Below the pieces are notes generated by a model. It was not told the DNA's origin. It did no database searches and saw nothing but the letters and a program-made list of their open reading frames with translations. The position numbers and the translations under genes were made by a program. A stretch of DNA of 64,000 nucleotides from Escherichia phage Ecwhy_1: sequence record MH791411.1; one strand, written 5' to 3'. This document shows positions 54 through 17,650 of this stretch, piece by piece. Within the stretch, counting starts at the first letter, position 1. Every line of letters begins with the position of its first letter.

Positions 54-140
54 GGTGTATCTCCTGGACTTGAGGGGAAACCATTTCCCCCTCTCGATAT
101 AAAACATTATACGTTAATCTAACTACAATGCAAGTACTTT
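54..140 (-). promoter_or_regulatory. PeSL-like cassette: early promoter + stem-loop + SD
   Basis: minus strand TTGCAT/TTGACA -35, TATAAT -10, then GGGGGAAATGGTTTCCCC hairpin just upstream of ATG. Confidence 0.6.
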
Positions 141-332
141 TTAAATTTTATTTCCGATATAGTCCGGCATGTTCTTTTCAGTCATACGCTTTGCTAATGT
201 CTGCATATGGCTTATAGCGTTCAAGGTGTCTTCCTCCAGGGATGAATCGAGATAATCAGGATCATTCTTCACCTTGCAATGATTATGATAGCGTAGTACT
301 GCCAGTACTTTTTTAACTTCTTCTACTGTCAT
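141..332 (-). CDS. hypothetical protein (63 aa)
   Basis: ORF track; ATG overlaps stop of upstream gene (ATGA coupling). Confidence 0.6.
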   Translation of the reverse strand: MTVEEVKKVLAVLRYHNHCKVKNDPDYLDSSLEEDTLNAISHMQTLAKRMTEKNMPDYIGNKI

Positions 333-601
333 AATAAGTACCCCACTTCGTTAGCTTTCAGGTTAGTATCAATCATCAGTGGATTTTTGTAGTTCACAAA
401 ACGAGTAGTTTTCTCGATAGCGAATCCCATATAATCCAGCTTACTAACAGTACATTCATTCTTAAAAACTTCTTTCGCTGCATCGATGGCTGATTGCATG
501 GATAACCGACCATCTAAATTAATGTTTCCAAATGATCCACCAGCAGAAGTAGGATTACCGTTCATATCTTTAATGATCATAGTAGCGGAGTAGCTGGACA
601 T
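329..601 (-). CDS. hypothetical protein (90 aa)
   Basis: ORF track; ATG preceded by AAAGGAAAC SD and PeSL-like cassette. Confidence 0.65.
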   Translation of the reverse strand: MSSYSATMIIKDMNGNPTSAGGSFGNINLDGRLSMQSAIDAAKEVFKNECTVSKLDYMGFAIEKTTRFVNYKNPLMIDTNLKANEVGYLL

Positions 602-690
602 AATTTTGTTTCCTTTTATTGGTGTGGGGAGAACTATTCTCCCCTTGATGTAAACTATTATACAGTACTAAAATACTTTGTCAAATACTT
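602..690 (-). promoter_or_regulatory. PeSL-like cassette
   Basis: TTGACA-17-TATAAT then GGGGAGAATAGTTCTCCCC hairpin (minus strand). Confidence 0.65.
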
Positions 691-1098
691 TTATTCGCCC
701 ATATAGATTAGATTATCATCGCCTACATAGGGATCGCAAACGTTGATTTCTTCACAGTACTTCGTGAATACATCGCCATAGTGACCTAAACCACGATCCC
801 AAAAACCAGTTCCGTGACCTTCGCGGGTAAGGAACAGATCATGACCAGCTTGCTCATAACCGTAATCAATAAACATACCGCGAACTACTTCCAGATCATT
901 ACCGTGTTTCTCAATGAAGCGAGAACATGCAATCACCGCCGCTTGACGTGCTTCATCAGATAACTCATAATCTTCCAGGTAATCGCCGTTATCATTATGT
1001 ACAGTACTGAATTGCATAGCTTCAATGTAAGCTACAACCATTGCAGCATGATTTTTATCGTTAGTGATGTTCCGAGCGAGATTAGTAGTAGTAGACAT
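691..1098 (-). CDS. hypothetical protein (135 aa)
   Basis: ORF track; ATG start; PeSL-like cassette upstream. Confidence 0.65.
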   Translation of the reverse strand: MSTTTNLARNITNDKNHAAMVVAYIEAMQFSTVHNDNGDYLEDYELSDEARQAAVIACSRFIEKHGNDLEVVRGMFIDYGYEQAGHDLFLTREGHGTGFWDRGLGHYGDVFTKYCEEINVCDPYVGDDNLIYMGE

Positions 1099-1181
1099 GA
1101 TTTTATTCCTTATTGTATTGGGGAGAACTATTCTCCCCTTGATGTAAACTATTATACAGTACTGATATACTTTGTCAATAC
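1099..1181 (-). promoter_or_regulatory. PeSL-like cassette
   Basis: TTGACA-17-TATAAT + GGGGAGAA..TTCTCCCC hairpin. Confidence 0.65.
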
Positions 1182-1403
1182 TTAATTACGTTTAAAATGA
1201 TATGTGCCTTTATCATCCTGTACGCCCCATACTGATTTACCATCAACACCAGTGAAGCCGGATTGTAATTCAATATGGAAACCATTATTATCAACTACAA
1301 AAACTTTTTTATTTTCATCCCGATAACATTGATATTCTGAATCAACATTAAAGGCCGCATCATTCAGACGATTGGAAGCGTAAATGCAAGTCATTGTAGT
1401 CAT
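1182..1403 (-). CDS. hypothetical protein (73 aa)
   Basis: track ORF trimmed: first 11 codons are read-through of the hairpin; start MTTMTC after SD. Confidence 0.55.
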   Translation of the reverse strand: MTTMTCIYASNRLNDAAFNVDSEYQCYRDENKKVFVVDNNGFHIELQSGFTGVDGKSVWGVQDDKGTYHFKRN

Positions 1404-1500
1404 GATTTTATTCCTTAATATACCAGGGAGAACCATTCCCCCTCTCGATATAAAACATTATACTTGATTCTAAGTACAATGCAAGTACTTTTTTAAAAAT
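1404..1500 (-). promoter_or_regulatory. PeSL-like cassette
   Basis: TTGCAT-N17-TATAAT + GGGGGAATGGTTCTCCC hairpin. Confidence 0.6.
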
Positions 1501-1504
1501 AGTT

Positions 1505-1627
1505 TTCAGTACTGAATACTTATATAATAGATACACTTCCGCACCCTATGGGTCAGTGAGTTATCTCTCAATGGATATATAATAGCAAAGGGACTGACCG
1601 GAGTCAATCCCTTTTTTTAATCTTTTT
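1505..1627. repeat. conserved ~120-bp intergenic element, copy 1
   Basis: shares AGATACACTnnnGCACCCTRTGGG box and GGGACTGACCGGAGTCAATCCC hairpin + T7 run with copies at 4785 and 8785. Confidence 0.6.
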
Positions 1628-2243: not shown

Positions 2244-2486
2244 TTACAGTACTTTACTATCAATGGCAACTACTTTTTTAACATTAACGGCGTGGATCAC
2301 TTCCTTCGTGTTTTTAGTACTGAATACTTTCGCCGCTCCTTGTTCGACCGTGATACGATAGCGACCATTAACATCAACCATATTAATAAAGTCCGGCGTG
2401 CTGAATGGTGTTGTTTTACATTTGAGTACTGTTAACAGTTCCACCAGCGATGTAGTTTCTTTGATACGTTTTTCTAAAGTAATCAT
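2244..2486 (-). CDS. hypothetical protein (80 aa)
   Basis: track ORF trimmed to MITLEKR; upstream 19 codons are promoter read-through. Confidence 0.5.
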   Translation of the reverse strand: MITLEKRIKETTSLVELLTVLKCKTTPFSTPDFINMVDVNGRYRITVEQGAAKVFSTKNTKEVIHAVNVKKVVAIDSKVL

Positions 2487-2543
2487 TTTGTTTCCCCCGT
2501 GTTGGTATGTACATATAGTACTAAAACATTTGAGTACTGTCAA

Positions 2544-2762
2544 TTAGATAATATTATATTTCTTAAAATAAAATGCGTCCTGTGTTGGTTGATACTCGAT
2601 ACCGTTACCGTTATTGACTTCAACTAATAAACCTTTGTCAATTAGTTTTTTAATAGTACGATACCCTTGTTGAAAATTGGTAAAATGTGAATCATTACGA
2701 AAGGTATAACCGTGCTTAACTGCTTCATCAATAGTTTTCTTTTCGATTTTAGATAATTTCAT
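2544..2762 (-). CDS. hypothetical protein (72 aa)
   Basis: track ORF trimmed to MKLSKIEK; promoter-leader duplicated from the 2244 gene. Confidence 0.5.
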   Translation of the reverse strand: MKLSKIEKKTIDEAVKHGYTFRNDSHFTNFQQGYRTIKKLIDKGLLVEVNNGNGIEYQPTQDAFYFKKYNII

Positions 2763-2815
2763 TTTGTTTCTCCCGTGTTGGTATGTGTACATAGTACTAA
2801 AACAATTGAGTACTG

Positions 2816-3070
2816 TCAACGTGATATTAGTTTTATTTTCTTATTGTATTGTTGATGCTCATAAAGGTTTATCTTTCCTGTGTTCTCGATTACTATCCTG
2901 TTGTTAGTGTCCACGTCGATTACACGCAGTTTCCCGTTGCTTAACTTCCTAGGTAATAGGTTACCATTAATAAACTCATTAGCAAGCTGTACGGCCTTTG
3001 TGATGATTCTCTGAGGTGCTTTATAGTGTACCCGTAAGATGTTATCTTTATATAGTTGAACCTTAATCAT
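2816..3070 (-). CDS. hypothetical protein (84 aa)
   Basis: ORF track; ATG after AGGACAAACAAA. Confidence 0.55.
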   Translation of the reverse strand: MIKVQLYKDNILRVHYKAPQRIITKAVQLANEFINGNLLPRKLSNGKLRVIDVDTNNRIVIENTGKINLYEHQQYNKKIKLISR

Positions 3071-3084
3071 TTTGTTTGTCCTAT

Positions 3085-3115
3085 AAAAAAGGCGGGAACT
3101 GATCCCGCCGTGTTG
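3085..3115 (-). terminator. rho-independent terminator candidate
   Basis: GGCGGGATCAGTTCCCGCC hairpin followed by TTTTTT on minus strand after stop of 3132 gene. Confidence 0.6.
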
Positions 3116-3131
3116 TTAGTACTGCAAGTTA

Positions 3132-3527
3132 TTAGATAACCTGGCGGCGTTTACTGTATACTGTTACACGATTACCCTTACGATCATGTCGGATCTCTTT
3201 CTGGTTGCGAATCAGTTCACTTGGACGCTTAAGGTTTGCCAGGTGATCCGCGTGAGTCCATGCGGTGTGGTTTACCTGTACTTTGATATCAGAATCAGCG
3301 ATAAACTCATCTTGTGCGTCAAGTATTGCCGCCAGCATATCCGCTCGTTTTAGTTCTGCTGCTGTCAGTACTGGCTCAGGTGAATTCACAATATCAGAGA
3401 TTTCTTTGAACTGTACGGCCCAGCGTTGACCTTTCGTTGCATCTTTGCCCATGTCTTTAAATGCTGCTCCTTCCTCGCGTGCAACAATACGGGCAGCTTC
3501 ACGGGTAGCGTAGAATTTAGTAATCAT
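3132..3527 (-). CDS. hypothetical protein; paralog of 16542-16808
   Basis: shared KYFATREQARIAAR..GATFKDMG..DRKGNRVTVY; start set at MITKF after AGGA. Confidence 0.6.
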   Translation of the reverse strand: MITKFYATREAARIVAREEGAAFKDMGKDATKGQRWAVQFKEISDIVNSPEPVLTAAELKRADMLAAILDAQDEFIADSDIKVQVNHTAWTHADHLANLKRPSELIRNQKEIRHDRKGNRVTVYSKRRQVI

Positions 3528-3622
3528 GGTATACATCCTATTAGTTGAGTTAGTACTACAAGTTAGAGTCTATTATAAAGTACTATCTGGGCAATGTCAA
3601 ATAGTACTTTAAATGGATTCTA

Positions 3623-3946
3623 TTACATGTCTTTCTTACGTTTTACATCGTGGTAGCGAACTGTTATTTCTTTGTTGATCTCTTCCTCGATGCGATGAAT
3701 AACTTTTTCTTTCGGGTTGAAACCTATAACGGTTTCTTTAATGATCTCCAAGCCCGTGTATTCGCCTTGTGTACCGTAACCGTATGTAAAGGTTTCGTGT
3801 CCCAGGTCTTCCCAGCGGTCGCCAATTAACGCAGACACGTAGCAAGAGTGGTAAGTATTGCCGTGTGAATCAGTCCACCGATTAACGTTAATGTCAAAGG
3901 AGGTTACAATTTTCAATTCTACTTTCTGGGCAAGGATCATAGCCAT
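3623..3946 (-). CDS. hypothetical protein; paralog of 10466-10789
   Basis: shared RWTDSxGNTYHSCxVS..TYGY..VKRKKD; ATG start. Confidence 0.65.
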   Translation of the reverse strand: MAMILAQKVELKIVTSFDINVNRWTDSHGNTYHSCYVSALIGDRWEDLGHETFTYGYGTQGEYTGLEIIKETVIGFNPKEKVIHRIEEEINKEITVRYHDVKRKKDM

Positions 3947-4033
3947 TTTTATTTCTCTCTCTTTGTTAGGAGGGGAACCATTCCCCTCGCTTGATGTAAA
4001 CTATTATACAGTACTAAGATACTTTGTCAATAC
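3947..4033 (-). promoter_or_regulatory. PeSL-like cassette
   Basis: TTGACA-17-TATAAT + GGGGAATGGTTCCCC hairpin. Confidence 0.65.
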
Positions 4034-4216
4034 TTATTTTTTGGAAAGTTTACGCATTAATTCTACGCTTTCTTGTGAACGTTTTGCTACCTGGCAAGCT
4101 GTATGGGCAGTAAACATTTTTGTATAGTCTGACGCTTTGCCACCGAACCGAGCGGCACGTTCACGGGCACTTGGAACTAATACTATTTCTTTATTACAGA
4201 TAGTGCACTTAGCCAT
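4034..4216 (-). CDS. hypothetical small Cys-containing protein (60 aa)
   Basis: trimmed to MAKCTICNK; CxxC near N-terminus. Confidence 0.55.
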   Translation of the reverse strand: MAKCTICNKEIVLVPSARERAARFGGKASDYTKMFTAHTACQVAKRSQESVELMRKLSKK

Positions 4217-4304
4217 TTTTATTTCTCTCTCTTTGTTAGGAGGGGAACCGTTTCCCCTCACTTGATGTAAACTATTATACAGTACTAAGATACTTTGTCA
4301 ATAC
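4217..4304 (-). promoter_or_regulatory. PeSL-like cassette
   Basis: TTGACA-17-TATAAT + GGGGAAACGGTTCCCC hairpin. Confidence 0.65.
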
Positions 4305-4580
4305 TTAAGTATTGTAAATGTCGTGAATAGTGATAAAGTTTTTACGACCGTAAACATGTAAATCAGTATCAATGTAGTGCTTATCAAGTACATCCTCGAC
4401 GCTTAAAGACGTGTCGTGAATATCTTCATAAAATTGTGGATCAACAATCGTGCTTAAGTCATCTGGCGTTAACTTATCGTTAAGGCATTGAACCGCCTGG
4501 ATATCTGCTTCACGTTTCCATTGTTCCAGATTAGTAGTCAGTACTTGCTCGATTTCGTTAGCTGTAAGTAAAGTCCGCAT
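4305..4580 (-). CDS. hypothetical protein (91 aa)
   Basis: ORF track; ATG after AAGGAAAC. Confidence 0.6.
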   Translation of the reverse strand: MRTLLTANEIEQVLTTNLEQWKREADIQAVQCLNDKLTPDDLSTIVDPQFYEDIHDTSLSVEDVLDKHYIDTDLHVYGRKNFITIHDIYNT

Positions 4581-4600
4581 TTTAATGTTTCCTTATCAGT

Positions 4601-4740
4601 GGTTGATGTAAGTATTATACTCGTTTACTTTCTATTGTCAAACTATTTTATCAGGGGAGTTTTTCGTATGTCTTACTCCTGGACTACTTAACGGGGTTAC
4701 TTATTTCGTTCCCCGTCCTGATGTAAAACATTATACTTGA
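4601..4740 (-). repeat. duplicated structured leader, copy A (copy B at 15826-15960)
   Basis: ~140 bp near-identical; two hairpins (ACGGGG..CCCCGT; CAGGAGT..ACTCCCCTG) between tandem promoters. Confidence 0.6.
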
Positions 4741-4784
4741 TTCTAAGTACAATGCAAGTACTTTTTTAAAAATAGTTTTCAGTA

Positions 4785-4895
4785 CTAGCCACCAGCAAAC
4801 AATAGATACATTTATGCACCCTGTGGGCTAATTTGTTTCTATGCGTATATAATAGCAAAGGGACTGACCGGAGTCAATCCCTTTTTCAAATATTT
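4785..4895. repeat. conserved ~120-bp intergenic element, copy 2
   Basis: GCACCCTGTGGGC box + GGGACTGACCGGAGTCAATCCC hairpin + T-run. Confidence 0.6.
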
Positions 4896-5045
4896 TTAAA
4901 CTTCTTTCGGGTTGCGATATGTGATAGCGTTCGGGTACATTTGTTTAATGTTATTCCATGCCTGGTTAACATTATAACCACTTGATCGAATCAGTTGGTT
5001 ATTACCGACACCTTGAAACACTACTTCAAATAAGAATTCTTTCAT
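4896..5045 (-). CDS. hypothetical small protein (49 aa; below track cutoff)
   Basis: ATG overlaps stop of 5042 gene (ATGA); reads MKEFLFEVVFQGVGNNQLIR. Confidence 0.4.
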   Translation of the reverse strand: MKEFLFEVVFQGVGNNQLIRSSGYNVNQAWNNIKQMYPNAITYRNPKEV

Positions 5046-5215
5046 GCTTTCACCTCTCGATCTGCTTTGCCTTTACGCCAGGCCGTTGCTAATTGTTCGC
5101 GTTGCCATAAGTCGAGTGATACGTAAAGTTTTGCATTATCACCCTTCGGATATTCGCCAGTAGTACCAATCCGATAAAACAGATCTTTCAGTACTGTTAA
5201 TTCTACCTGGACCAT
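5042..5215 (-). CDS. hypothetical protein (57 aa)
   Basis: trimmed to MVQVELT after hairpin read-through. Confidence 0.5.
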   Translation of the reverse strand: MVQVELTVLKDLFYRIGTTGEYPKGDNAKLYVSLDLWQREQLATAWRKGKADREVKA

Positions 5216-5302
5216 TATACTTTCCTCTTTGTTAGGAGGGGAACTATTCCCCTTCCGATATAAAACATTATACACTTTATTCAGTACTGTGCAAGTACTT
5301 TT
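5216..5302 (-). promoter_or_regulatory. PeSL-like cassette
   Basis: promoter + GGGGAATAGTTCCCC hairpin. Confidence 0.6.
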
Positions 5303-5515
5303 TTAATCTTTCAGCCAATGATCCTGAATGAATTTTTCACCGGAACCTTGCTGCATTGATTGTAACAGACGTTCGCGATGAGCGGCGGCGAATTGCTCAG
5401 TACTATGCGTTACACCTGGTTGATATCTGGATTCACCATTTGGGGCGATGTATTGTACATCCCACGGTTTTTCGTTAGTATCAGACCATTTACGAACGAT
5501 TAGTTGACCTTGCAT
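5303..5515 (-). CDS. hypothetical protein (70 aa)
   Basis: ORF track; ATG start. Confidence 0.6.
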   Translation of the reverse strand: MQGQLIVRKWSDTNEKPWDVQYIAPNGESRYQPGVTHSTEQFAAAHRERLLQSMQQGSGEKFIQDHWLKD

Positions 5516-5598
5516 TTTTCTTTCCTCTTAGTGGGGAGAATCATTTCTCCCCTTCATGTAAACTATTATACAGTACTGGATTGCATTGTCAATAGTTT
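5516..5598 (-). promoter_or_regulatory. PeSL-like cassette
   Basis: TTGACA-17-TATAAT + GGGGAGAAATGATTCTCCCC hairpin. Confidence 0.65.
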
Positions 5599-5922
5599 TT
5601 ATTCACCTTGTTTGAATATAGTTTTCTCCATTGATTCCATGATTGCAACCAATACAGCATGGATCTCACTTAACGCGGCATCACTAAAAGCATTAATGAA
5701 TAGGCAATCATTCTCGCGAATATTTTTAATGTACTTATCAGCAGTGGTTGCGAATTCATTCAACGGCAGATCAAATGCTTTATCCCATAATGGATGGCGT
5801 AACTGTAACAGTACTGGATTATCACGATCACCAGGGGAAAACGTACCAGTGATGAAACATACGCCCGGAATACTTTCGAACTGGCAACGGACTTCCTTTG
5901 TGATAGTAGTATGAATGTACAT
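5599..5922 (-). CDS. hypothetical protein (107 aa)
   Basis: ORF track; GAGGA SD. Confidence 0.6.
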   Translation of the reverse strand: MYIHTTITKEVRCQFESIPGVCFITGTFSPGDRDNPVLLQLRHPLWDKAFDLPLNEFATTADKYIKNIRENDCLFINAFSDAALSEIHAVLVAIMESMEKTIFKQGE

Positions 5923-5949
5923 TTATTGTTATCCTCTATTAAATTAATA

Positions 5950-6138
5950 TTACAGTTTATGAATTAATTCTTTATCTAAGCGATAGCGTACATTATTAAT
6001 GGTAACAGCATTATTTTTAATGCTACGCTGTACGGGTCCACCAGCAATAACAAACGTTGCTTTATTGCCCCGAACAATGATAGCACTTCCAGGATTACCG
6101 AAATCATCTTGTACTAAAATACTTGATAAGTTTTCCAT
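5950..6138 (-). CDS. hypothetical protein (62 aa)
   Basis: ORF track. Confidence 0.55.
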   Translation of the reverse strand: MENLSSILVQDDFGNPGSAIIVRGNKATFVIAGGPVQRSIKNNAVTINNVRYRLDKELIHKL

Positions 6139-6216
6139 TTTTATTTCCTCTTAGTAGGGGAAGATGTTTCCCCTTGATGCAAGTACTATAACAGTACTGA
6201 AAACTAAATGCAAGTA
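6139..6216 (-). promoter_or_regulatory. PeSL-like cassette
   Basis: promoter + GGGGAAACATCTTCCCC hairpin. Confidence 0.6.
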
Positions 6217-6573
6217 CTATGATAAAATCATGATAGGATATTCACTATCTATCAATACCTCGAATCCGAAACCTTCGTACCATTCTTTAAGATTAAAGGC
6301 GTTATCTTCTCCCGTATCGCATTCTAAGATGATACAATCTGAATCATCGGCGGCATCAATAAAGGCATTCATTAATTCGTTACCTTCACCATTGCCCCGA
6401 CTATCAGGATCAACATAAAGAGAATCAATAAACGCTACACGGTCATAATCAAGATCCGGTGCAATGATTCCACGTTTAACAAACCAGTACTGCAATTGTG
6501 CTACTTTGCCCTGTACTTGATAGCCAGTGATCTCGCCATTGTCAGTAGTACGCGTGATATGTTGTATTCCCAT
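6217..6573 (-). CDS. hypothetical protein (118 aa)
   Basis: ORF track; TTGACA-17-TATAAT promoter and GAGGAT SD upstream. Confidence 0.6.
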   Translation of the reverse strand: MGIQHITRTTDNGEITGYQVQGKVAQLQYWFVKRGIIAPDLDYDRVAFIDSLYVDPDSRGNGEGNELMNAFIDAADDSDCIILECDTGEDNAFNLKEWYEGFGFEVLIDSEYPIMILS

Positions 6574-6636
6574 GATTACTATCCTCAGTTAAGATATAAA
6601 ACATTATACACTATCTTTCAGTACTGTCAATACTTT

Positions 6637-6894: not shown

Positions 6895-7056
6895 TATTTT
6901 AACCTCATTATAAAAATACTATAGTACTGTAATGCTACAATAATACTACTAGTGTTTATCTTATTCAAACCATATGATACTACATATCCACCAGCATTAC
7001 CACGAATAGTAACGCCTTTGTACTGTCTATATAAATTCAACTGCGTATATTGCCTT

Positions 7057-7129: not shown

Positions 7130-7223
7130 ATATTATATAGTTACATTTGTGCACCCTATGGGTTAGTGACGTTCTCGTCTTGATGTAAGTATTATGCCAG
7201 TACTGGAGGATATTGTCAATAGA

Positions 7224-10789: not shown

Positions 10790-10878
10790 TTTTGTATTCC
10801 TTAAATTAATATGTTGTCTTGATAAAATCTATTATGCCAGTACTATCAAACTATGTCAATAGTACTGTGATAATATTT

Positions 10879-11091
10879 TTACTTACTTTCTTTCGCTGCT
10901 TTGTGCGTTGCCACTGCCATAACCACATCAGCACGAACAAAGTTTTTAACCGTGTCGCTGTAATAATTGATCGCTTCATCAATATCTGCGAACATCCGAT
11001 ACATACCGCACCACGATACTTTATAACCTGCTTTCACTTCTTCCAGCTTAACCAGTGATTTGTTAACTTTGATTTTAGTAATGATAGCCAT
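10879..11091 (-). CDS. hypothetical protein (70 aa)
   Basis: ORF track; upstream promoter cassette identical to the one at 10790-10878. Confidence 0.6.
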   Translation of the reverse strand: MAIITKIKVNKSLVKLEEVKAGYKVSWCGMYRMFADIDEAINYYSDTVKNFVRADVVMAVATHKAAKESK

Positions 11092-11319
11092 TTTATTTTC
11101 CTCAGTTGTCTTGATAAAATCTATTATGCCAGTACTATCAAACTATGTCAATAGCACTGTGATAATATTTTTACTTACTTTTTGCTTTCTTGATTGCTTC
11201 CACCTGGTCGGCCCATTCTTTACCCCATACTTGTAAATTATAATGGTACTGGCAAAGAGCAACGCCCCGCTTTAAACCCGTAATAGATTTCTGACCACAT
11301 TGACAAGTTTTCATTTTAG

Positions 11320-11400
11320 TTTCCTTGTAGTGGGGAGAACCATTTTCTCCCCTTGATGTAATGTATTATACTTTATTCGATTTACTTTGCAAGTACTTTT
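11320..11400 (-). promoter_or_regulatory. PeSL-like cassette
   Basis: promoter + GGGGAGAAAATGGTTCTCCCC hairpin; precedes unannotated ~47-aa Cys-containing ORF (MKTCQCGQK..) at ~11176-11319. Confidence 0.5.
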
Positions 11401-11628
11401 TTAATTTAATTCATCAAGGCAAAGGATACGCTCAACGCCCAAATCAGTTAAACTAATCGACGGCACTTGATAGGTTTCAATGTATGCTACACTTGCCCAC
11501 TGACCGAACTCATTAACGGCCCAGGTATTCATTGCATTTTGCAATTCCGCACCTTCCTTGTTGGTAATGACTGCAACTACTTGTTCGTTGCCAGTAGTAC
11601 CAGATACGCGAGTAATGATAATAGCCAT
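11401..11628 (-). CDS. hypothetical protein (75 aa)
   Basis: trimmed to MAIIITRV. Confidence 0.55.
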   Translation of the reverse strand: MAIIITRVSGTTGNEQVVAVITNKEGAELQNAMNTWAVNEFGQWASVAYIETYQVPSISLTDLGVERILCLDELN

Positions 11629-11720
11629 TGTTTTGATTCCTTTGATTTGGAAGGAGAACCGTTTCCCCCTCTCGATGTAAAACATTATACGCTAATCTCT
11701 TAATCGTGCAAGTACTTTTT
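11629..11720 (-). promoter_or_regulatory. PeSL-like cassette
   Basis: promoter + GGGGGAAACGGTTCTCC hairpin. Confidence 0.6.
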
Positions 11721-11869
11721 ATTACTTTTTGCAAAATACTTTAAACGCTCTCAATCGCGTTCTTACAGCCTTAACGCCACCAGCTAGGGCAATGCATCAG
11801 ATAATCAGTTTAATGCGTTAGAATCGTTTCTAGGCGGTGCTGGTGGCATGGTAAACGATAAACACAAAA

Positions 11870-11913
11870 AAGCCCACCGTTTAAGGTGGGCTAGTGATTC
11901 AGTACTTTAATTG
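11870..11913 (-). terminator. rho-independent terminator
   Basis: GCCCACC-TTAAAC-GGTGGGC hairpin + TTTTTT on minus strand after stop. Confidence 0.7.
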
Positions 11914-12396
11914 TTATGCTTCAACTTTGCGATGAGATTCGATCCATTCCTCGCGAGTCATACCGCTGGCGTTAATCGCGTCCAGTACTACCGCAATGCA
12001 GTTACCACGCACCGGAATCAGATATTCTTCCCCGTTGTCCAGTACTACCGCTACGCGTTCCTGAATCCATTTTTTGGCTTTTACTTCTGGCTTGTCTTCC
12101 CCATACTTAACCGCCAGGGCTTTTTGTGCCATCTCTGTAACTACTTCCAGATCCAATCCAACTACTGCCGCCTGAATACTTTCGATTGTTGCTTGTAGTT
12201 CTGCTTCACGGGCCGCCTTTGCCGCTTCAATTTCTGCCGCTTTATTTGCTTGTAGTTCTTTCGCAGTACTGTACGCGATGTTAAAATTATTGCGTACCGC
12301 TTTCATGGTATCGTTATCCAGTTCAGCCAGGATCTCAGCCGCGACGTTAGTTTCATTTGCTACCAGTGCTTTGATGAATGATTTTACATTAGCCAT
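11914..12396 (-). CDS. hypothetical protein (160 aa), Ala/Glu-rich
   Basis: track ORF starts at TTG; ATG (MANVKSF) follows GAGGA SD. Confidence 0.6.
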   Translation of the reverse strand: MANVKSFIKALVANETNVAAEILAELDNDTMKAVRNNFNIAYSTAKELQANKAAEIEAAKAAREAELQATIESIQAAVVGLDLEVVTEMAQKALAVKYGEDKPEVKAKKWIQERVAVVLDNGEEYLIPVRGNCIAVVLDAINASGMTREEWIESHRKVEA

Positions 12397-12599
12397 TTTA
12401 TAAATCCTCAATTAAAGTTTAGTTTACGTTTATTAGTGTATCAAAGTTTTCTCGACGTGTCCAGTTTTTCGTTCGACTTACTGGCGGTCTACTTAGTGCT
12501 CCCCGTCTTGATGTAATACATTCTACGCTTTTCTGCGGTAATGTCAACTACTTTCTTAAAACTATTTTCAAAGTATCTCAGTACTACGATACTACAAAA

Positions 12600-12629
12600 A
12601 CAAAAAAGCCCACCAGGTGGGCTATGTAC
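12600..12629 (-). terminator. rho-independent terminator
   Basis: GCCCACC-TGGTGGGC hairpin + T-run (minus). Confidence 0.65.
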
Positions 12630-12860
12630 TTAATCAGTGAGTAAAATATTAAACACTTTACCATTTAACGTTATTGGTGCACTGCTACCAGGCACAAGAT
12701 CCGTTAGTATACCTGCAATCGCTTTATCATTGGCTACCTTTCCAGTGTCCAACAGTACTACAGTACTGATAAGATTAACGCTCGTTTCAATATCATAATG
12801 CACGGCGTTAAGTAGTTGTGTAGTACTGCTTTCGTTAAGTAAAACAATTCGCTTAGTCAT
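12630..12860 (-). CDS. hypothetical protein (76 aa)
   Basis: ORF track. Confidence 0.55.
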   Translation of the reverse strand: MTKRIVLLNESSTTQLLNAVHYDIETSVNLISTVVLLDTGKVANDKAIAGILTDLVPGSSAPITLNGKVFNILLTD

Positions 12861-12881
12861 GATGTTACCCCGTAGTATCTA

Positions 12882-13181
12882 TCAACGGCAATTAATAACG
12901 CCGGTATGAGTTACTTTCTCGGTATCCATTACAGTGACCGAACCGCGTTTAGCACTGGCATCATAATAAATTGTCGTGCTACCGTTTTCGTCTTCTTCAT
13001 GGAACGGGCCGTTTTTAAATGCTTCCGGCTGGATCTCTAAATCCTTTAATACAATCTCGCCAGTTCTTTCATCGGTCATTGCAACAGTGCACTGAATGAA
13101 TTTTTCACTACTTACATCTAATGACGCATTAACAGCGAAAGAGGAAACAGATAAAGCCAGGGCGATGATTGCAATTTTCAT
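12882..13181 (-). CDS. secreted hypothetical protein (99 aa)
   Basis: N-terminal signal-peptide-like MKIAIIALALSVSSFAVNAS. Confidence 0.6.
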   Translation of the reverse strand: MKIAIIALALSVSSFAVNASLDVSSEKFIQCTVAMTDERTGEIVLKDLEIQPEAFKNGPFHEEDENGSTTIYYDASAKRGSVTVMDTEKVTHTGVINCR

Positions 13182-13265
13182 TTGATTATCCTTAGTTACC
13201 AGGGGAAACCGTTTCCCCTTGCGATGTAAAATATTATACAGTACTAAAAACTAATTGCAAGTACT
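13182..13265 (-). promoter_or_regulatory. PeSL-like cassette
   Basis: promoter + GGGGAAACGGTTTCCCC hairpin. Confidence 0.6.
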
Positions 13266-13502
13266 TTATGATTTTTTATAAAACATTTCAGCAGTGATAT
13301 TTTTACCCGTTGGCTGTACTTTATCCAGAATTTTTTGATGCCCTGGTCGTCCAAAGGAATATGATCCGTAAACAGTAAACCAGTAGTTACCCTCAGTGTT
13401 TACATGTACAGCACAATAAGGAACACCACGCGATTCATCACTAGTAAAGTGTGATACCGTTCCCGTTACATTCGCAGACGTTGATTTGATTTGTTCGACC
13501 AT
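13266..13502 (-). CDS. hypothetical protein (78 aa)
   Basis: ORF track. Confidence 0.6.
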   Translation of the reverse strand: MVEQIKSTSANVTGTVSHFTSDESRGVPYCAVHVNTEGNYWFTVYGSYSFGRPGHQKILDKVQPTGKNITAEMFYKKS

Positions 13503-13580
13503 TTTCTTATTCCTTAGTTACCAGGGGAACCGCTCCCCCTATGCAAAACATTATACGCGTTTAAAAACTAATTGCAAGTA
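13503..13580 (-). promoter_or_regulatory. PeSL-like cassette
   Basis: promoter + GGGGGAGCGGTTCCCC hairpin. Confidence 0.6.
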
Positions 13581-13610
13581 TTTTAATAAAAAGTATTTGA
13601 AAAATAGTTG

Positions 13611-13680
13611 TTGACAAGTGCATCCAGTACTGGCATAATTACTACATCAAGACGAAACAGTCACTAACCCACCGGGTGCC
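13611..13680 (+). promoter_or_regulatory. plus-strand sigma70-type promoter + conserved box
   Basis: TTGACA-N17-CATAAT on plus strand, ACCCACCGGGTGC box ~30 nt downstream. Confidence 0.5.
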
Positions 13681-13745
13681 GAGATCCGTCTATTAAATGA
13701 TTCAGTACTGAAAAAGTAACGGGGAGTTATTATCTCCCCGTGTTG

Positions 13746-13967
13746 TTATTTTGTAAGGTATAAACAGAAGTCGCCTTTATTTGCTACGCCGCCAGTGTAA
13801 CGCGAGGAATAGTTAGAAACGTCCTGGACTTCTGCTATTACCAGGGTATCATCATTCAATTCGTCGCAGAAGCAAACGGCTGGATCTTGTACGCCGATTT
13901 TGTCGGCATGTTCCCGCATAGATTTAACCAGTGCTTCCAGTTGGGAAAGAGTAGTGATATTAGCCAT
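13746..13967 (-). CDS. hypothetical protein (73 aa)
   Basis: trimmed to MANITTL. Confidence 0.55.
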   Translation of the reverse strand: MANITTLSQLEALVKSMREHADKIGVQDPAVCFCDELNDDTLVIAEVQDVSNYSSRYTGGVANKGDFCLYLTK

Positions 13968-14051
13968 TTTATTTTCCTCATTACCAGGGAGAACCATTTC
14001 TCCCTTTGATGTAAACCATTATACAGTACTGAAAACTAATTGCAAGTACTT
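13968..14051 (-). promoter_or_regulatory. PeSL-like cassette
   Basis: promoter + GGGAGAAATGGTTCTCCC hairpin. Confidence 0.6.
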
Positions 14052-14240
14052 TTAATTAAATTCCATAAAATCATTTTCAACGTGCACAACAATCTGATTA
14101 TTTTTAAAGGACGCAGAAAACTCTATACAATCATAAACCGCTTTTTCTGTTACCAGACTATGAGCACCAATCGGATTAATTGGGGATTGAATTGTTTCAA
14201 TCTCGTTACCTTGTTCATTAACGATTAAAATATTAAACAT
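14052..14240 (-). CDS. hypothetical protein (62 aa)
   Basis: ORF track. Confidence 0.5.
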   Translation of the reverse strand: MFNILIVNEQGNEIETIQSPINPIGAHSLVTEKAVYDCIEFSASFKNNQIVVHVENDFMEFN

Positions 14241-14279
14241 TGCCGTTACTCCTGGATAGTGTTAACTCGATATAAAGTA

Positions 14280-14462
14280 TTATACGCCTTTATTGCTTAG
14301 TGTCCAGTGATCACGCATCATACGCCCCGCACGATCCCAGCTAGTAGGCATGGGTATGCCTTGCAATTCGTTAGGGGAGATCTCGACCTCGATCCCTACA
14401 TCAATAACAGTCATTCCAGCTTTCGCAGCTTGCTCGCGGATAACCTCAGATAATGTTGTCAT
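14280..14462 (-). CDS. hypothetical protein (60 aa)
   Basis: ORF track; leader duplicated from the 14052 gene. Confidence 0.5.
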   Translation of the reverse strand: MTTLSEVIREQAAKAGMTVIDVGIEVEISPNELQGIPMPTSWDRAGRMMRDHWTLSNKGV

Positions 14463-14536
14463 GATTAAAGCTCCTGGATAGTGTTAACTCGATATAAAGT
14501 ATTATACAGTACTGAAAACTAATTGCAAGTACTTTT

Positions 14537-14797
14537 TTAATATTGTTTGTCGTCGTCTTCCTCGATGAATTGACCGACGAAATGATCTACTTTCGCTTTG
14601 AGGCTTTTATAATCTTCTTCTACTTCCGTTAAACGTTCCTGGTAGTATTCCAATGCTTCAAGATACGCCGCCTCAGCAGTTTTTGCACGCATAGCTAAAT
14701 TCATTCCACGCGTTTCATCAAATAGCCAATAACCATCGGTGCACTGGCTAATAGATAATGACTTGCTTAGTACTGTATAGCTAATTACTTTACTCAT
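14537..14797 (-). CDS. hypothetical protein (86 aa)
   Basis: ORF track; GAGGG SD after GGCGGGTAATAGTTCCCGCC hairpin. Confidence 0.6.
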   Translation of the reverse strand: MSKVISYTVLSKSLSISQCTDGYWLFDETRGMNLAMRAKTAEAAYLEALEYYQERLTEVEEDYKSLKAKVDHFVGQFIEEDDDKQY

Positions 14798-14854
14798 TAG
14801 ATAACCCTCAGTAAAGGCGGGAACTATTACCCGCCATTATCTCAGTACTGAATA

Positions 14855-15094
14855 TTACATTCCAACCATTGCAGCACGGATCGCAGTAGTGCTATACTTA
14901 AAGCCGTCCGGCGTTGTAGTAGTACCGTTGGCTTTTAATCTGCGGTACATACATTCCGCAGCAATATCTTTAGTTCTACTTTGTGCGATGCAACTTTGAG
15001 CAAGCCGATACAATGACTCACCGTTATTAATCCAAAGGCTTACATTCCAATGAGTTTTGTTTTTGTGTCCGTTGTAAGTTTTAGTACTAGCCAT
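14855..15094 (-). CDS. hypothetical protein; paralog of 16895-17134
   Basis: shared HKNKTHWNVSLWINN..PDGFKYSTTAIRAAMVGM; trimmed to MASTK. Confidence 0.6.
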   Translation of the reverse strand: MASTKTYNGHKNKTHWNVSLWINNGESLYRLAQSCIAQSRTKDIAAECMYRRLKANGTTTTPDGFKYSTTAIRAAMVGM

Positions 15095-15184
15095 TTTTAA
15101 ATCCTCGTTTGAGCGGGGAACCACTCCCCGCCTCGATATAAAGTATTATACGCTTTTAAACTTAGTTTGCAAGTACTTTTTAAA
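15095..15184 (-). promoter_or_regulatory. PeSL-like cassette
   Basis: promoter + CGGGGAGTGGTTCCCCG hairpin. Confidence 0.6.
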
Positions 15185-15796
15185 TTAATATTCGATTGAT
15201 TCCACTACGCCATCAATAACATTGAATTGATACTCGTTACCCTCAATCAGTGCCGTAATGTTTTCAGTAGTGAATTGATCCTCATATGCATTCTCTAAAT
15301 CACGGTACAACTTGCGGGACAATTCACGAATAGTTTCAGTGAGTAGTTCCTCAAGCTCATTAACTAACGTTTCTTGTTTTGCGGTTAAATCAGTGTAAGC
15401 CGATTCAATGTACCCGCTTACAGTATTCTCATGCGAGTAGTGGGAGTGCGAACGTTTTACACTCATCGCCAAATCATCTTCATTCAGCAAGTGACGGATT
15501 GAGCGATACTTAGTTAATGCTCTTACCTTGCGTAAAAACTTCACTGCGTCAACGTGGTCAGTACTGATTGATGCACCGTCACCCTGGGACCAAAAACCAC
15601 TGAATTGTATTTCAGCGTCATTAATGCCATATTCCGGTAGTACTGTTTCTTTATAGTATTCAATTTCACTTTCAGAAAAATAATTGTCGTTTGAGTTTTT
15701 TTCACGTTCCCGAACCAGTTCGATAGCTGACGTTTGTTGTTCTGCGTTCAATTCAGAAAAAGCCATAACATAAGTAGTAGTAGTGATAGTTTTCAT
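15185..15796 (-). CDS. hypothetical protein (203 aa)
   Basis: ORF track; ATG after GAGGGT SD. Confidence 0.65.
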   Translation of the reverse strand: MKTITTTTYVMAFSELNAEQQTSAIELVREREKNSNDNYFSESEIEYYKETVLPEYGINDAEIQFSGFWSQGDGASISTDHVDAVKFLRKVRALTKYRSIRHLLNEDDLAMSVKRSHSHYSHENTVSGYIESAYTDLTAKQETLVNELEELLTETIRELSRKLYRDLENAYEDQFTTENITALIEGNEYQFNVIDGVVESIEY

Positions 15797-15825
15797 TTTG
15801 TAACCCTCATTCAGTAGTTGATGTA

Positions 15826-15960
15826 AGTATTATACGCTTTTAAAAACATTTGTCAAACTATTTTATCAGGGGAGTTTTTCGTGTGCCTTACTCCTGGGCT
15901 ACTTAACGGGAAGTTACTTATTTCGTTCCCCGTCCTGATGTAAAACATTATACGCCTTTA
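15826..15960 (-). repeat. duplicated structured leader, copy B
   Basis: near-identical to 4601-4740. Confidence 0.6.
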
Positions 15961-16020
15961 AACATAGTTTGCAAGTACTTTTTAAAAATAGTTTTCAGTA
16001 CTGAATAGTAAAAAAAAGTA

Positions 16021-16081
16021 TTGACAGCATTATCAAGTACTGGTATAATATACCCCATGACAACAGCTAACCCACCGGGTG
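16021..16081 (+). promoter_or_regulatory. plus-strand consensus sigma70 promoter + conserved box
   Basis: TTGACA-N17-TATAAT (perfect consensus), ACCCACCGGGTGC box downstream. Confidence 0.6.
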
Positions 16082-16223
16082 CACAATTGTAACTATACTA
16101 AACTAATTTTTCTATAGATACACTCCCGCACCCTATGGGCTACGGCTTATCTGCCAATGAATACATTATGCCAGTACTGACAAAATAAGTCAATACCGGC
16201 AATTGTAAAGATTTGTAAACTGC

Positions 16224-16460
16224 TTATACTGCAATCGCGTCCAGGCTATAATAATAATAAGTGCCGTATTGGTGTACTTTATTACCTTTTATTTCAGTAC
16301 TGAATGAATCCGAACGGTTTGCATATGATGTTAATTTAAAGTACTTTGATTTGCTGATACGTTGCCATACACCACAGATCCGCTGTAAGTAAGTAGTTTT
16401 ATTCGTGGTAGTATCTTTTACGGTTTTAACTTCAGTCATATACATATTAGTCATTTTCAT
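16224..16460 (-). CDS. hypothetical protein (78 aa)
   Basis: ORF track; GGAG SD. Confidence 0.55.
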   Translation of the reverse strand: MKMTNMYMTEVKTVKDTTTNKTTYLQRICGVWQRISKSKYFKLTSYANRSDSFSTEIKGNKVHQYGTYYYYSLDAIAV

Positions 16461-16541
16461 TACTCCAGGTTATAGGCGGGAAGAGTTCCCGCTCTCGATG
16501 TAAAACATTATACGCCATTAAACATAGTTTGCAAGTACTTT
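16461..16541 (-). promoter_or_regulatory. PeSL-like cassette
   Basis: promoter + GCGGGAACTCTTCCCGC hairpin. Confidence 0.6.
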
Positions 16542-16808
16542 TTATTCAAGTACTGCAATCTTTTTAGTACGGTACACGGTCACGCGGTTGCCCTTTCGGT
16601 CGAGCTTTATTTCTACCACTCGACGCGATACACTATCGGGACTTTTTAAGGCCGCTAACCAGTACTGTAATGATCTGGCGGTACTACGCTTTACAATGGC
16701 CCAACGTTTACCACGTTCCGATTGTACGCCCATATCTTTAAACGTTGCCCCGTCCTGGCGTGCGGCGATCCGAGCTTGTTCACGCGTCGCAAAATACTTA
16801 ATTTTCAT
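16542..16808 (-). CDS. hypothetical protein; paralog of 3132-3527
   Basis: trimmed to MKIKYFATREQ. Confidence 0.6.
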   Translation of the reverse strand: MKIKYFATREQARIAARQDGATFKDMGVQSERGKRWAIVKRSTARSLQYWLAALKSPDSVSRRVVEIKLDRKGNRVTVYRTKKIAVLE

Positions 16809-16894
16809 GCTGTTGCCCTTATCGTTGGTGTATGAATAAAACACTATTATAAAGTACTATCGCAAAAAAATGATAGTACTTTAAATAAATTCTA

Positions 16895-17134
16895 TTACAT
16901 TCCAACCATCGCCGCACGGATCGCAGTAGTGCTATATTTGAATCCGTCCGGTGTTTTATCTTGTCCAGTCTGTTCTAAAAATAACATCATATGACGGGCC
17001 GCATCATTGCGATTAGTGCTATCGTTAATAAAGTCCTGGGCCAACCGATACAATCCCTCATCGTTATTAATCCAAAGGCTTACATTCCAATGAGTTTTGT
17101 TTTTGTGACCTAAGAACATTTTTGATTTAGCCAT
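16895..17134 (-). CDS. hypothetical protein; paralog of 14855-15094
   Basis: trimmed to MAKSKMF. Confidence 0.6.
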   Translation of the reverse strand: MAKSKMFLGHKNKTHWNVSLWINNDEGLYRLAQDFINDSTNRNDAARHMMLFLEQTGQDKTPDGFKYSTTAIRAAMVGM

Positions 17135-17227
17135 TTTTTTAATCCTCTTATATAGTGGGGAACTATTCCCCACCTGATGTAAAACATTATACGCCATTAA
17201 ACATAGTTTGCAAGTACTTTATTAAAC
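17135..17227 (-). promoter_or_regulatory. PeSL-like cassette
   Basis: promoter + GGGGAATAGTTCCCC hairpin. Confidence 0.6.
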
Positions 17228-17590
17228 TTATTTGTAAATTTTGCCACTGTCAGCCCATACCAGGAAACGAGGCATATTATCCCATGCATCTTGTTTTAAG
17301 TTTAAGCCGTGCAATTCCTCAGTTGTTGCCATCCCTGGTACTGGCTTACTACACACCGCGAAATTTTCGCCCATATACTGATAAACCATCGTCAAATCAT
17401 TTGAGATCATTATATGGATCATTGAATCCAGCATCAAAGTAGCGGCGTATTGTTCACGCTTAAGCGGCAACATTGCAATAAGTTCCCGATAAGCTGCAAT
17501 GTGAATTTTTACAGTTTCAGCCGGAAGACCTTTCATCTCATCGCGGAAGTTTACCAGGTTAAGCATGATTTTATTGATTTGAGTCGCCAT
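17228..17590 (-). CDS. hypothetical protein (120 aa)
   Basis: trimmed to MATQINK. Confidence 0.6.
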   Translation of the reverse strand: MATQINKIMLNLVNFRDEMKGLPAETVKIHIAAYRELIAMLPLKREQYAATLMLDSMIHIMISNDLTMVYQYMGENFAVCSKPVPGMATTEELHGLNLKQDAWDNMPRFLVWADSGKIYK

Positions 17591-17650
17591 CGTTTTAATC
17601 TCTCTTAATGTGTAGCGGGAAGTGTTCCCGCTCTCGATGTAAAACATTAT
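17591..17650 (-). promoter_or_regulatory. PeSL-like cassette
   Basis: promoter + GCGGGAACACTTCCCGC hairpin. Confidence 0.6.

Follow-up and report, generated by a model that had tools for sequence, protein, structure and literature searches.

Promoter-hairpin cassettes in the terminal repeat of an Asteriusvirus phage resemble promoter-early stem-loop units and probably act as early expression units and recombination joints

The closest known counterparts of the repeated element described here are the promoter-early stem-loop (PeSL) units of phi1/RB49, PST/T4 and nt-1/KVP40 (Arbiol et al., 2010, PMC2839356; Comeau et al., 2014, PMC4122927). We examined a stretch of 64,000 nt from Escherichia phage Ecwhy_1 (sequence record MH791411.1), called the window throughout, in which the first 17.7 kb carry an array of similar units that we refer to as cassettes. 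Like PeSLs, the cassettes are repeated intergenic units of about 100 bp, in which an A/T-rich tract is followed by a sigma70-type promoter, a G-run/C-run stem-loop, a Shine-Dalgarno (SD) sequence and an ATG. Also like PeSLs, they cluster where small ORFans are frequent and gene content is variable, and they bound indels and replacements between close relatives. The two systems differ in other respects. PeSLs were defined in T4-type phages, whereas the phage studied here is a 350-kb Asteriusvirus that is not placed among them, although T4-like core genes have been reported for its clade (PMC5259590). The PeSL stem-loop lies upstream of, within, or just before the promoter start (five subclasses), whereas the stem-loop of the cassettes always lies past the -10, would be transcribed into the 5′ untranslated region (UTR), shows RNA-type covariation and has no terminator features. 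Moreover, the array fills a direct terminal repeat (DTR), 21 of its 22 promoters contain the hexamer AGTACT, and both cassettes and cargo are common to other phage families. Since the stem-loop does not lie where PeSL stem-loops lie, we regard the cassettes as a variant of the PeSL idea rather than strict members: they appear to extend PeSL-like systems to a new phage group, in which the stem-loop is a putative 5′ UTR RNA element.

Two other systems share parts of this design. The T7 A1 promoter is a strong sigma70 early promoter near a genome end, and the 10 bases ATCGAGAGGG lie 7 nt past the -10 both there and in several cassettes. Its -35, spacer and -10 sequences are not those of the cassettes, and T7 places three promoters before one long early operon that is processed by RNase III, whereas the array has dozens of promoters, one per small gene. 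The pre-early region of T5 lies on its first-step-transfer DNA and has very strong sigma70 promoters such as N25. Its likeness to the array consists of host-takeover genes in a long direct terminal repeat, near-consensus sigma70 promoters and conserved initial transcribed regions. T5 has no sequence similarity to the cassette array, however, and we know of no description of a repeated promoter-hairpin-ribosome-binding-site (RBS) module in that phage.

When window positions 1-6,000, 1-19,000 and 30,000-40,000 were compared with deposited phage genomes by megablast, identities were 94-99% to fEgEco12, WPEC3, ph0011, G17, PBECO4 and 121Q, including 98.9% to Escherichia phage fEgEco12 and other Asteriusvirus. 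The window is thus part of an Asteriusvirus genome, that of a PBECO4/121Q-like 350-kb jumbo myophage. Positions 1 to ~19,340 correspond to positions ~18,900 to 1 of the vB_Ec-M-J record, where the DTR is annotated as 1-21,525 (21,525 bp); phage Sharanji has a DTR of 20.7 kb (PMC11895373). Because the array maps within the annotated repeat of vB_Ec-M-J, it lies wholly inside a DTR of ~21 kb. Its genes run inward from the genome end, with ~49 minus-strand genes of 47-203 aa packed into 17.7 kb. Seven of ten larger array proteins had no Pfam match above threshold; the matches were to GNAT (6217-6573), a DksA/TraR zinc finger (6637-6894) and, weakly, a kinase (1628-2212). Coverage of the array region by relatives ranges from 94% down to 31%. 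Transcription in the related phage PA5oct depends on the RNA polymerase of the host, and its start sites carry TTGAC/TATAATA motifs (PMC7318152); in CBB, RpoD-like promoters are grouped among short early open reading frames (ORFs) adjoining the terminal repeat (PMC5259590). We found no paper on Asteriusvirus promoters; the cassette promoters carry no annotation in the deposited records examined, and no description of them was found in the literature.

Direct reading of the minus strand, together with a search combining a regular expression with a stem requirement, gave exactly 22 canonical cassettes, all on the minus strand between 51 and 17,687, and one outlier at 48439. Each is named by the first base of its -35.

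17588..17687, minus strand: c17673; AGTACTTGCAC, 16-nt spacer, TATAAT, leader ACATCGAG, hairpin AGCGGGAA-cac-TTCCCGCT, SD, ATG of a 120-aa ORF
17132..17227, minus strand: c17213; TTGCAA, hairpin GGTGGGGAA-tag-TTCCCCACT
16452..16548, minus strand: c16534; chimera with a spacer identical to that of c17213 and a stem of the c17673 type
15092..15186, minus strand: c15172; hairpin GGCGGGGAG-tgg-TTCCCCGCT with two G·U pairs
13965..14059, minus strand: c14045; two AGTACT, hairpin AGGGAGAA-atgg-TTCTCCCT
13500..13591, minus strand: c13577; the sole cassette without AGTACT
13179..13274, minus strand: c13260; canonical cassette
11626..11725, minus strand: c11711; leader ATCGAGAGGG, a T7 A1-like initial transcribed sequence
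11312..11406, minus strand: c11392; canonical cassette
9505..9600, minus strand: c9586; combines the c13577 spacer and the hairpin seen in c9357 and c5592
9277..9371, minus strand: c9357; combines the c13260 spacer and hairpin GGGGAGAA-atga-TTCTCCCC
8672..8768, minus strand: c8754; WPEC3 has an additional gene here, bracketed by a 100-bp repeat of c8754
8234..8332, minus strand: c8318; TTGACA class
6136..6227, minus strand: c6213; TTGCAT, 17-nt spacer, TATAGT; left breakpoint of an indel that includes the GNAT gene
5513..5606, minus strand: c5592; TTGACA promoter, hairpin and loop the same as in c9357 and c9586
5213..5308, minus strand: c5294; canonical cassette
4214..4315, minus strand: c4301; 93% identical to c4030; UE-S1 lacks the intervening gene, and the junction has a 97-bp repeat
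3944..4044, minus strand: c4030; canonical cassette
1401..1498, minus strand: c1484; ATG in the loop gives the false N terminus MVLPG
1096..1192, minus strand: c1178; with c684, brackets a gene that UE-S1 and SP27 lack (repeat of 96-99 bp)
599..698, minus strand: c684; canonical cassette
51..147, minus strand: c133; its ORF extends past the window start
48362..48453, minus strand: single cassette built like the others but located outside the array (-35 at 48439); hairpin GGGGATGA-acttc-TCATCCCC

The 25 nt upstream of the cassette promoters are 79% A+T, compared to 64% for the window. Among the 22 cassettes, the -35 is TTGACA in six, TTGCAA in ten, TTGCAC in three and TTGCAT in three. The spacer is 16 nt and the -10 is TATAAT in all except c6213. 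AGTACT occurs at least once in every cassette apart from c13577, and in 15 of the 22 it overlaps the upstream edge of the -35 (AGTACTTGCAA). The leader after the -10 follows the pattern (A/G)NTTTACATC(A/G)AG. In all 22 a stem begins 8-14 nt past the -10 hexamer; it is perfect, has 7-9 bp with 4-6 G-C pairs, closes a loop of 3-5 nt and is predicted to fold with -11 to -15 kcal/mol. After a further 4-12 nt come a purine-rich SD and the ATG, with the SD-like run and ATG located 15-24 nt past the stem in every cassette. Such promoters are rare by chance: within 1-19,500, the promoter pattern was found 35 times, compared to a mean of 1.4 in 200 dinucleotide shuffles, and composites of promoter plus hairpin were found 21 times, compared to 0 in every shuffle. 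A consensus scan recovered 11 perfect (12/12) TTGACA/TATAAT sites on the minus strand. When the cassettes were compared with those of six relatives, the -10 had diverged by 0.9%, the -35 by 2.6%, the hairpin arms by 3.6-4.7% and the loop by 9.8%; for the initial 60 coding nt the value was 3.2%. Promoter activity, use of sigma70 and early timing are all predicted from these sequence features.

An earlier note on this DNA had proposed at least 22 copies of a promoter, stem-loop and RBS unit, and this count is borne out by the 22 canonical units. It had also recognized that certain N termini read from the ORFs are artefacts. They arise because of the ATG formed within TATA-ATG, where TATA-ATG-TTT-TAT-ATC-GAG... 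gives MFYIERGKRF, and because of ATG within loops, where ATG-GTT-CTC-CCT-GG gives MVLPG. Its statement that nearly every minus-strand gene is preceded by the unit was too broad, since the canonical unit precedes 22 of the ~49 genes, a hairpin-less sigma70-type promoter precedes another 13, and no promoter is recognizable before the other 14. The spacer it gave as ~17 nt is 16 nt in 21 of 22 cassettes. The spacer end AGTACTG is present in ten of the 22 and absent from the rest, and the two -35 variants it listed, TTGACA and TTGCAT, account for six and three units, with TTGCAA and TTGCAC used in the others. Its comparison with PeSLs holds for the sequence-level features and does not extend to the position of the stem-loop; a terminator role finds no support in the sequence, and the phage is not T4-type in the strict sense.

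The likely transcription start can be placed by comparison with T7 A1. In the T7-like Yersinia phage phiA1122, the A1 promoter reads ...GGATACT tacagcc ATCGAGAGGGAGACGG..., while c11711, c8754, c1484 and c133 read TATAAT gttttac ATCGAGAGGGGGAAACGG; the shared 10 bases therefore begin 7 nt past the -10 in both. The T7 A1 transcript starts at the A of these 10 bases. As bases and distance are the same, the A of ATCGAG or ATCAAG is probably where cassette transcripts begin; the stem would then lie at about +6 to +8, and the 5′ UTR would be ~45 nt long.

To compare the hairpins themselves, we gathered those close to promoters in the window and in six relatives; their 38 distinct arm pairs, each joined by the same linker, were then aligned. 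This arms-only alignment replaced a MAFFT alignment of whole cassettes, in which hairpins were misaligned because loop length varies. Across the 8-bp helix, 96.4% of cells are paired and changes on both sides occur at all eight pairs; none of 500 shuffles reached any of these measures, and when the partner was slid by 1-3 columns, 50-71% of cells were paired. The six core pairs contain 15 G·U pairs (G·T in DNA), no A·C pairs and no other mismatch. As transitions should yield G·T and A·C equally, pairing appears to be kept on the mRNA-sense strand, which argues for an RNA structure and not for a duplex operator. At least seven loop variants occur on one stem, AGGGGAGAA/TTCTCCCCA. In Klebsiella phage Muenster (Alcyoneusvirus), the DTR has the same layout, including AGTAC-TTGACA and CAGTACTG-TATAAT, and its stems (GGGAATGAA/TTCATTCCC, GGGGATACA/TGTATCCCC and AGAGATTCCAG/CTGGAATCTCT) are unrelated in sequence. 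That the hairpin is selected as RNA and works in the transcript appears well supported by these comparisons.

A switch acting on the RBS was considered and rejected, as the predicted unpaired probability of the SD-to-AUG segment is 0.70 with the hairpin and 0.70 with the hairpin deleted. When the 5′ arm alone is destroyed in silico, the mean falls to 0.56. Rfam 15 gave no hits at gathering score in the whole window and two chance-level hits at E ≤ 1 in 1-19,500, and ARAGORN found nothing relevant.

One role for the stem-loops, proposed for PeSLs, is to terminate or attenuate transcription arriving from upstream cassettes, so that genes are insulated transcriptionally. The stems are intergenic and G/C-rich, with the predicted energies given above, and in a reporter assay a PeSL stem-loop cut downstream lacZ about as much as rrnB T1 (PMC2839356). 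We nevertheless consider this explanation unlikely. Each stem lies downstream of its own promoter, which it would attenuate too. None of the 22 cassette hairpins was recovered in a terminator scan of the minus strand, and no T-run follows the stem, the bases directly after it being CACTAA, CCTAAC or TGGTAA. The region has separate terminators with T-runs (3109, 11892, 12623, 4884, 1614 and 8894). With the stem downstream of the likely start and no U-tract, a terminator role of the PeSL type is not supported here.

Alternatively, the element might act during initiation, with the purine-rich 5′ arm serving as an initial transcribed sequence that aids promoter escape and the hairpin made by the 3′ arm preventing backtracking or R-loops. 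The purine arm comes first in all 38 distinct hairpins, and in several copies leader and arm make up the T7 A1 initial transcribed sequence at the T7 A1 distance from the -10. At the strong N25 promoter of phage T5, productive escape is governed by the initial transcribed sequence (PMC12464699). This reading leaves the strict upkeep of pairing, with loops free to vary, without explanation, and hairpin-less class C promoters with the same leader (ACATCAAC...) occur in the same array; we regard it as quite unlikely.

It is very improbable that the inverted repeat is a DNA operator, at which a dimeric phage or host repressor bound at about +8 to +28 would silence the early promoters together. Such a phage would be expected to have a mechanism for early shut-off, and the repeat does occupy a fixed position just past the promoter, with similar sequence in many copies (GGGGAGAA...TTCTCCCC). 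Yet the arms are not conserved as half-sites would be: the changes are compensatory (G-C to C-G, A-U or U-A), loops of 3-5 nt alter the half-site spacing, the excess of G·T over A·C in the core is an asymmetry foreign to recognition of duplex DNA, and Muenster has unrelated stems at the same place.

The cassettes are homologous and their genes are unrelated. Alignment of all copies, which the earlier note had proposed, gives an average pairwise identity of 73% (shuffled, 54%) and a maximum of 93%, for c4030 and c4301. Among the 21 complete downstream proteins, a single pair is related at E < 1e-3, namely those behind c15172 and c17213 (66% identity). That the repeats are simply upstream regions of tandemly duplicated genes, without any independent module, is hardly credible: some neighbors are paralogous (for example 2244-2486 with 2544-2762, besides the c15172/c17213 proteins), but one related pair among 21 does not match the identity of the cassettes, and in other phages the same gene stands behind different cassette types.

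Modules within the cassettes have been recombined. Spacers are shared by c13577 and c9586 and by c13260 and c9357, while on the other side hairpin and loop are shared by c9586 and c9357 and the tail by c13577 and c13260, so that all four combinations exist, a four-gamete pattern. Further chimeras are c5592, which joins a c9357-type hairpin to a TTGACA-type promoter, and c16534, which joins the spacer of c17213 to a stem of the c17673 type. With a length of ~95 nt, the identities given above and a copy every 300-500 bp, the cassettes should be substrates for homologous recombination.

We used collinear megablast chains to compare window positions 1-19,500 with fEgEco12, WPEC3, G17, PBECO4, UE-S1 and SP27, and identified 23 distinct indel or replacement events (46 ends). 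Twenty-seven of the 46 ends fall inside promoter units, which cover 21% of the region (binomial p = 4e-8), and 19 fall inside canonical or extended cassettes, which cover 14% (p = 6e-6). In seven of the 23 events the ends overlap by 46-100 bp, corresponding to a gene and one cassette between two cassette copies.

690|1087, 4036|4210, 8759/8660, 17218/17139, 10889|11105, 2565|2759 and 14053|14491: repeat-flanked events

There are also clean replacements between two cassettes, for example 9367|9528 and 11641|11671. The repeat-flanked junctions are stronger evidence for recombination at cassettes than the breakpoint counts. These results agree with the suggestion of the earlier note that the units shuffle genes, as indels and replacements among close relatives begin and end in cassettes, often with repeats of 46-100 bp.

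Exchange extends to other phages. A 96-nt cassette query matched 10-25 places per Asteriusvirus genome, and it also matched Alcyoneusvirus, other RaK2-like jumbo phages, and the ~140-150 kb Vequintavirinae and Justusliebigvirus coliphages. In the Vequintavirinae phage A73, 1.7 kb contain cassettes and homologs of the window genes at 15.9, 11.6, 11.3, 8.2, 17.1 and 8.5 kb, in that order. In Justusliebigvirus muut, which is phi92-like, 514 bp are 91.4% identical to window positions 4736-4228, and the match stops inside c4301. The next gene in muut is a homolog of 16895-17134, which in the window sits behind c17213. It appears well supported that the cassettes serve as joints for gene gain, loss and exchange, even across phage families that are not related.

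Taken as a whole, the data are probably best explained by self-contained early expression cassettes that carry an RNA hairpin and double as recombination joints. Three points seem well supported by the sequence comparisons: sigma70 early promoters with a standard 5′ UTR, a hairpin that acts as RNA, and recombination via the units. The phage, without an RNA polymerase of its own, is thought to use the host sigma70 holoenzyme. Each cassette would supply this enzyme with an A/T-rich UP-like tract and a near-consensus promoter, then a conserved initial transcribed sequence (ATCGAGAGGG in several copies), an 8-bp G/C RNA hairpin from about +6 to +8, and the SD and ATG. The predicted output is mostly monocistronic expression of small unrelated ORFans, together with the GNAT, DksA/TraR zinc-finger and kinase-like proteins. 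Unequal exchange between neighboring cassettes would delete or duplicate a gene together with one cassette, exchange within a cassette (promoter, hairpin or RBS modules) would pair genes with new control regions, and the same joints would permit exchange with other coliphages that use related cassettes. As to the hairpin, its most likely role would be that of a structural cap or insulator of the 5′ UTR, not a DNA operator or an intrinsic terminator. Once read-through transcripts are processed, it may also protect the 3′ end of the upstream message, lengthening mRNA life while leaving the RBS untouched. We infer this end-protecting or insulating function; it is the reading we prefer, and it is the weakest step.

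Several points weigh against this explanation. Promoter activity is deduced from sequence, as the literature yielded no data on start sites, timing or RNA half-life for Ecwhy_1 or close relatives. The hairpin arms were located with RNAfold, which biases the pair counts toward pairing. PeSL stem-loops without obvious U-tracts terminated in a reporter assay (PMC2839356), so some attenuation by the cassette hairpin is possible. A T7 A1-like start would leave 5-6 unpaired nt before the hairpin, making a role as stabilizer uncertain. Work by Emory, Bouvet and Belasco in 1992 reportedly found that 5′ stem-loops in E. coli protect mainly when ~2-4 nt from the 5′ end. As for recombination, viable indels must end between genes, where most DNA is cassette DNA, and part of the breakpoint association is therefore expected anyway. 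When limited to non-coding positions, the breakpoint test was weak (p = 0.07 with a rough gene set), because the quickly made gene set overlaps the cassettes.

Besides the canonical cassettes, the region contains promoters and terminators of other designs. In three extended units, a structured leader of ~75 nt takes the place of the simple hairpin, and two of them have a second TTGACA promoter.

4612..4770, minus strand: extended unit, promoter 4757; ~75-nt structured leader (minimum free energy -21 kcal/mol, z -3.5), followed by another TTGACA promoter (4641)
15827..15987, minus strand: extended unit, second copy; promoters at 15974 and 15856
12400..12560, minus strand: extended unit, divergent copy, promoter 12547; includes TAAGTAGACCGCCAGTAAGTCGAACGAAAAACTGG, a match to the A1-A2 leader of T7-like phages
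7668..11185, minus strand: class C promoters, hairpin-less (-35 at 11151, 10859, 8004, 7742 and 7219); AGTACTaTTGACAtagtttgatAGTACTGgCATAAT, extended -10, two AGTACT
2484..15870, minus strand: other hairpin-less sigma70-type gene promoters (-35 at 15856, 14528, 6630, 4641, 3600, 2819 and 2543)
3091..3109, minus strand: canonical intrinsic terminator, GGCGGGATCAGTTCCCGCC followed by TTTTTT
11871-11892 and 12607-12623, also 4884, 1614 and 8894, minus strand: further intrinsic terminators with T-runs, from the terminator scan
-35 at 57527, 53933, 53153, 50890, 46416, 44609 and 42971, also 8887, 4877 and 1607, minus strand: composite terminator-promoters with the -35 within the terminator stem

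A motif, TAAGTAGnC...GTAAGnCnnACGAAAAAC, is common to the extended units and the A1-A2 leader found in T7-like Yersinia phages (91% over 35 nt, E = 3e-4), and the 12547 unit agrees with that leader at 33 of 37 bases. The stems flanking this motif differ compensatorily (CCTG/CAGG, CCAG/CTGG, GGAG/CTCC). The extended leader forms a hairpin with a conserved 16-nt A-rich loop (UAAGnCnnACGAAAAA), and the motif is also found, with compensatory stem changes, in the phiA1122 A1-A2 leader, muut and A73. Among the extended-leader copies themselves, sequences are too alike for covariation to be informative. Exact-pattern scans of IMG/VR matched only contigs of Asteriusvirus size, two contigs of ~6.7 kb and, when the pattern was the leader motif, contigs of T7-like type.

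Elements that couple a terminator to a promoter occur in phage and bacterial genomes, and in one PeSL subclass the stem-loop overlaps the -35. The composite terminator-promoters of the window consist of GGGTTGACTtcggTCAGCCC, TTTTT and then TATAAT; they have a U-tract, have no 5′ UTR hairpin and are distinct from the array cassettes. Those at 42-58 kb have the leader cATTTCATCAA after TATAAT and resemble the PeSL subclass just mentioned.

A non-coding unit of ~110 nt is also repeated, on the minus strand at ~4900-4790, 1630-1520, 8912-8800, 7235-7130 and 16210-16100 and on the plus strand at 16021-16100, such that the copies at 16193 (minus) and 16021 (plus) face each other. Its promoter is usually TTGACT within a terminator stem, followed by TATTAT. 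The unit has a small hairpin with a covarying stem (GAG/CTC, GGC/GCC, AGCA/TGCT, CCAC/GTGG) and an invariant core, CCCAYAGGGTGC-N5-TGTAWCTAT, that is conserved between both jumbo-phage genera; five copies lie in 12 kb of the Muenster DTR. With no match in Rfam, the unit is a candidate small RNA or protein-binding site.

The hexamer AGTACT, which recurs in the cassette promoters, is the commonest hexamer in the window, with 280 copies compared to ~22 expected (13-fold), and is densest in 1-24,000. The terminal repeats of six relatives and that of Muenster show a 17- to 24-fold excess. Within 1-19,500, the hexamer occurs 11.8 times per kb between genes and 3.2 times per kb inside them. C and G are the preferred flanks: 67 sites read CAGTACTG and none reads GAGTACTC. 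Sites peak at positions overlapping the -35 edge and abutting the -10, and 89-96% are intact in relatives, compared to 75-84% for random hexamers. We found no regular spacing of the sites and no literature on the motif. Several explanations were rejected. A codon-level cause does not fit, as there is no frame preference (16, 13, 9). As an SlmA site (GTGAGTACTCAC) the motif fails, with no GTNAGTACTNAC and no GAGTACTC among the 280 sites. As part of an extended -10 it fits class C only (TGgCATAAT), since in AGTACTG-TATAAT the TG is one base too near. Readings of AGTACTGTATAAT as LexA- or TrpR-like were dropped because the second half-site is missing. A DNA-level function of AGTACT is likely.

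The E. coli Chi sequence, GCTGGTGG, is also in excess, with 14 copies in the window compared to 0.4 expected, 11 of them on the minus strand.

537, 2441, 4789, 6038, 6988, 7498, 11777, 18731, 38267, 48912 and 59445, minus strand: Chi sites
11839, 18743 and 25776, plus strand: Chi sites

The terminal repeats of relatives and of Muenster contain 6-12 copies compared to 0.1-0.3 expected. This excess may reflect protection of linear genome ends from RecBCD.

The array is followed by ~2 kb (17,650-19,600) without plausible ORFs, adjoining the position equivalent to the physical genome end of relatives (~19,340). In this segment, a TTGACT/TATAAT promoter (18962) precedes a leader that folds strongly (-20 kcal/mol), and there are also a long inverted repeat with AGTACT (18772-18805) and two Chi sites. 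Beyond it, according to the annotation of relatives, come a head-to-tail run of ~60-aa genes without cassettes on the minus strand (~19,600-24,500) and, on the plus strand (~24,000-40,000), a series of paralogous ~380-aa RCC1-like ("regulator of chromosome condensation") genes with a terminator after each.

A broader proposal, which we make tentatively and hold to be possible rather than probable, combines two parts. The cassette would be an early-gene "plug" shared by virulent coliphage lineages that are not related to each other, namely Asteriusvirus, Alcyoneusvirus, the rV5-like Vequintavirinae and the phi92-like Justusliebigvirus, with leader motifs extending to T7-like podoviruses, and AGTACT, whose 13- to 24-fold excess is conserved across genera, would be the site of a factor that binds or modifies DNA at this class of promoter. 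If the proposal is true, co-infection would let a small host-takeover gene located between two plugs enter a phage of another family and be expressed at once.

The jumbo phages of this group contain hundreds of unannotated small genes, and the cassettes give a simple rule for finding true early-gene starts that avoids false N termini such as MFYIERGKRF. They also define the likely immediate-early gene set of the terminal repeat and would explain why this region diverges so strongly between phages that are otherwise 95-99% identical. As compact, standardized expression parts of predicted high strength, the units may be of use in themselves. The blocks shared across families, such as the 514 bp at 91% identity in a phi92-like phage, suggest that early host-takeover genes circulate among unrelated coliphages by means of shared control modules, and such circulation would bear on the diversification of therapeutic phages.

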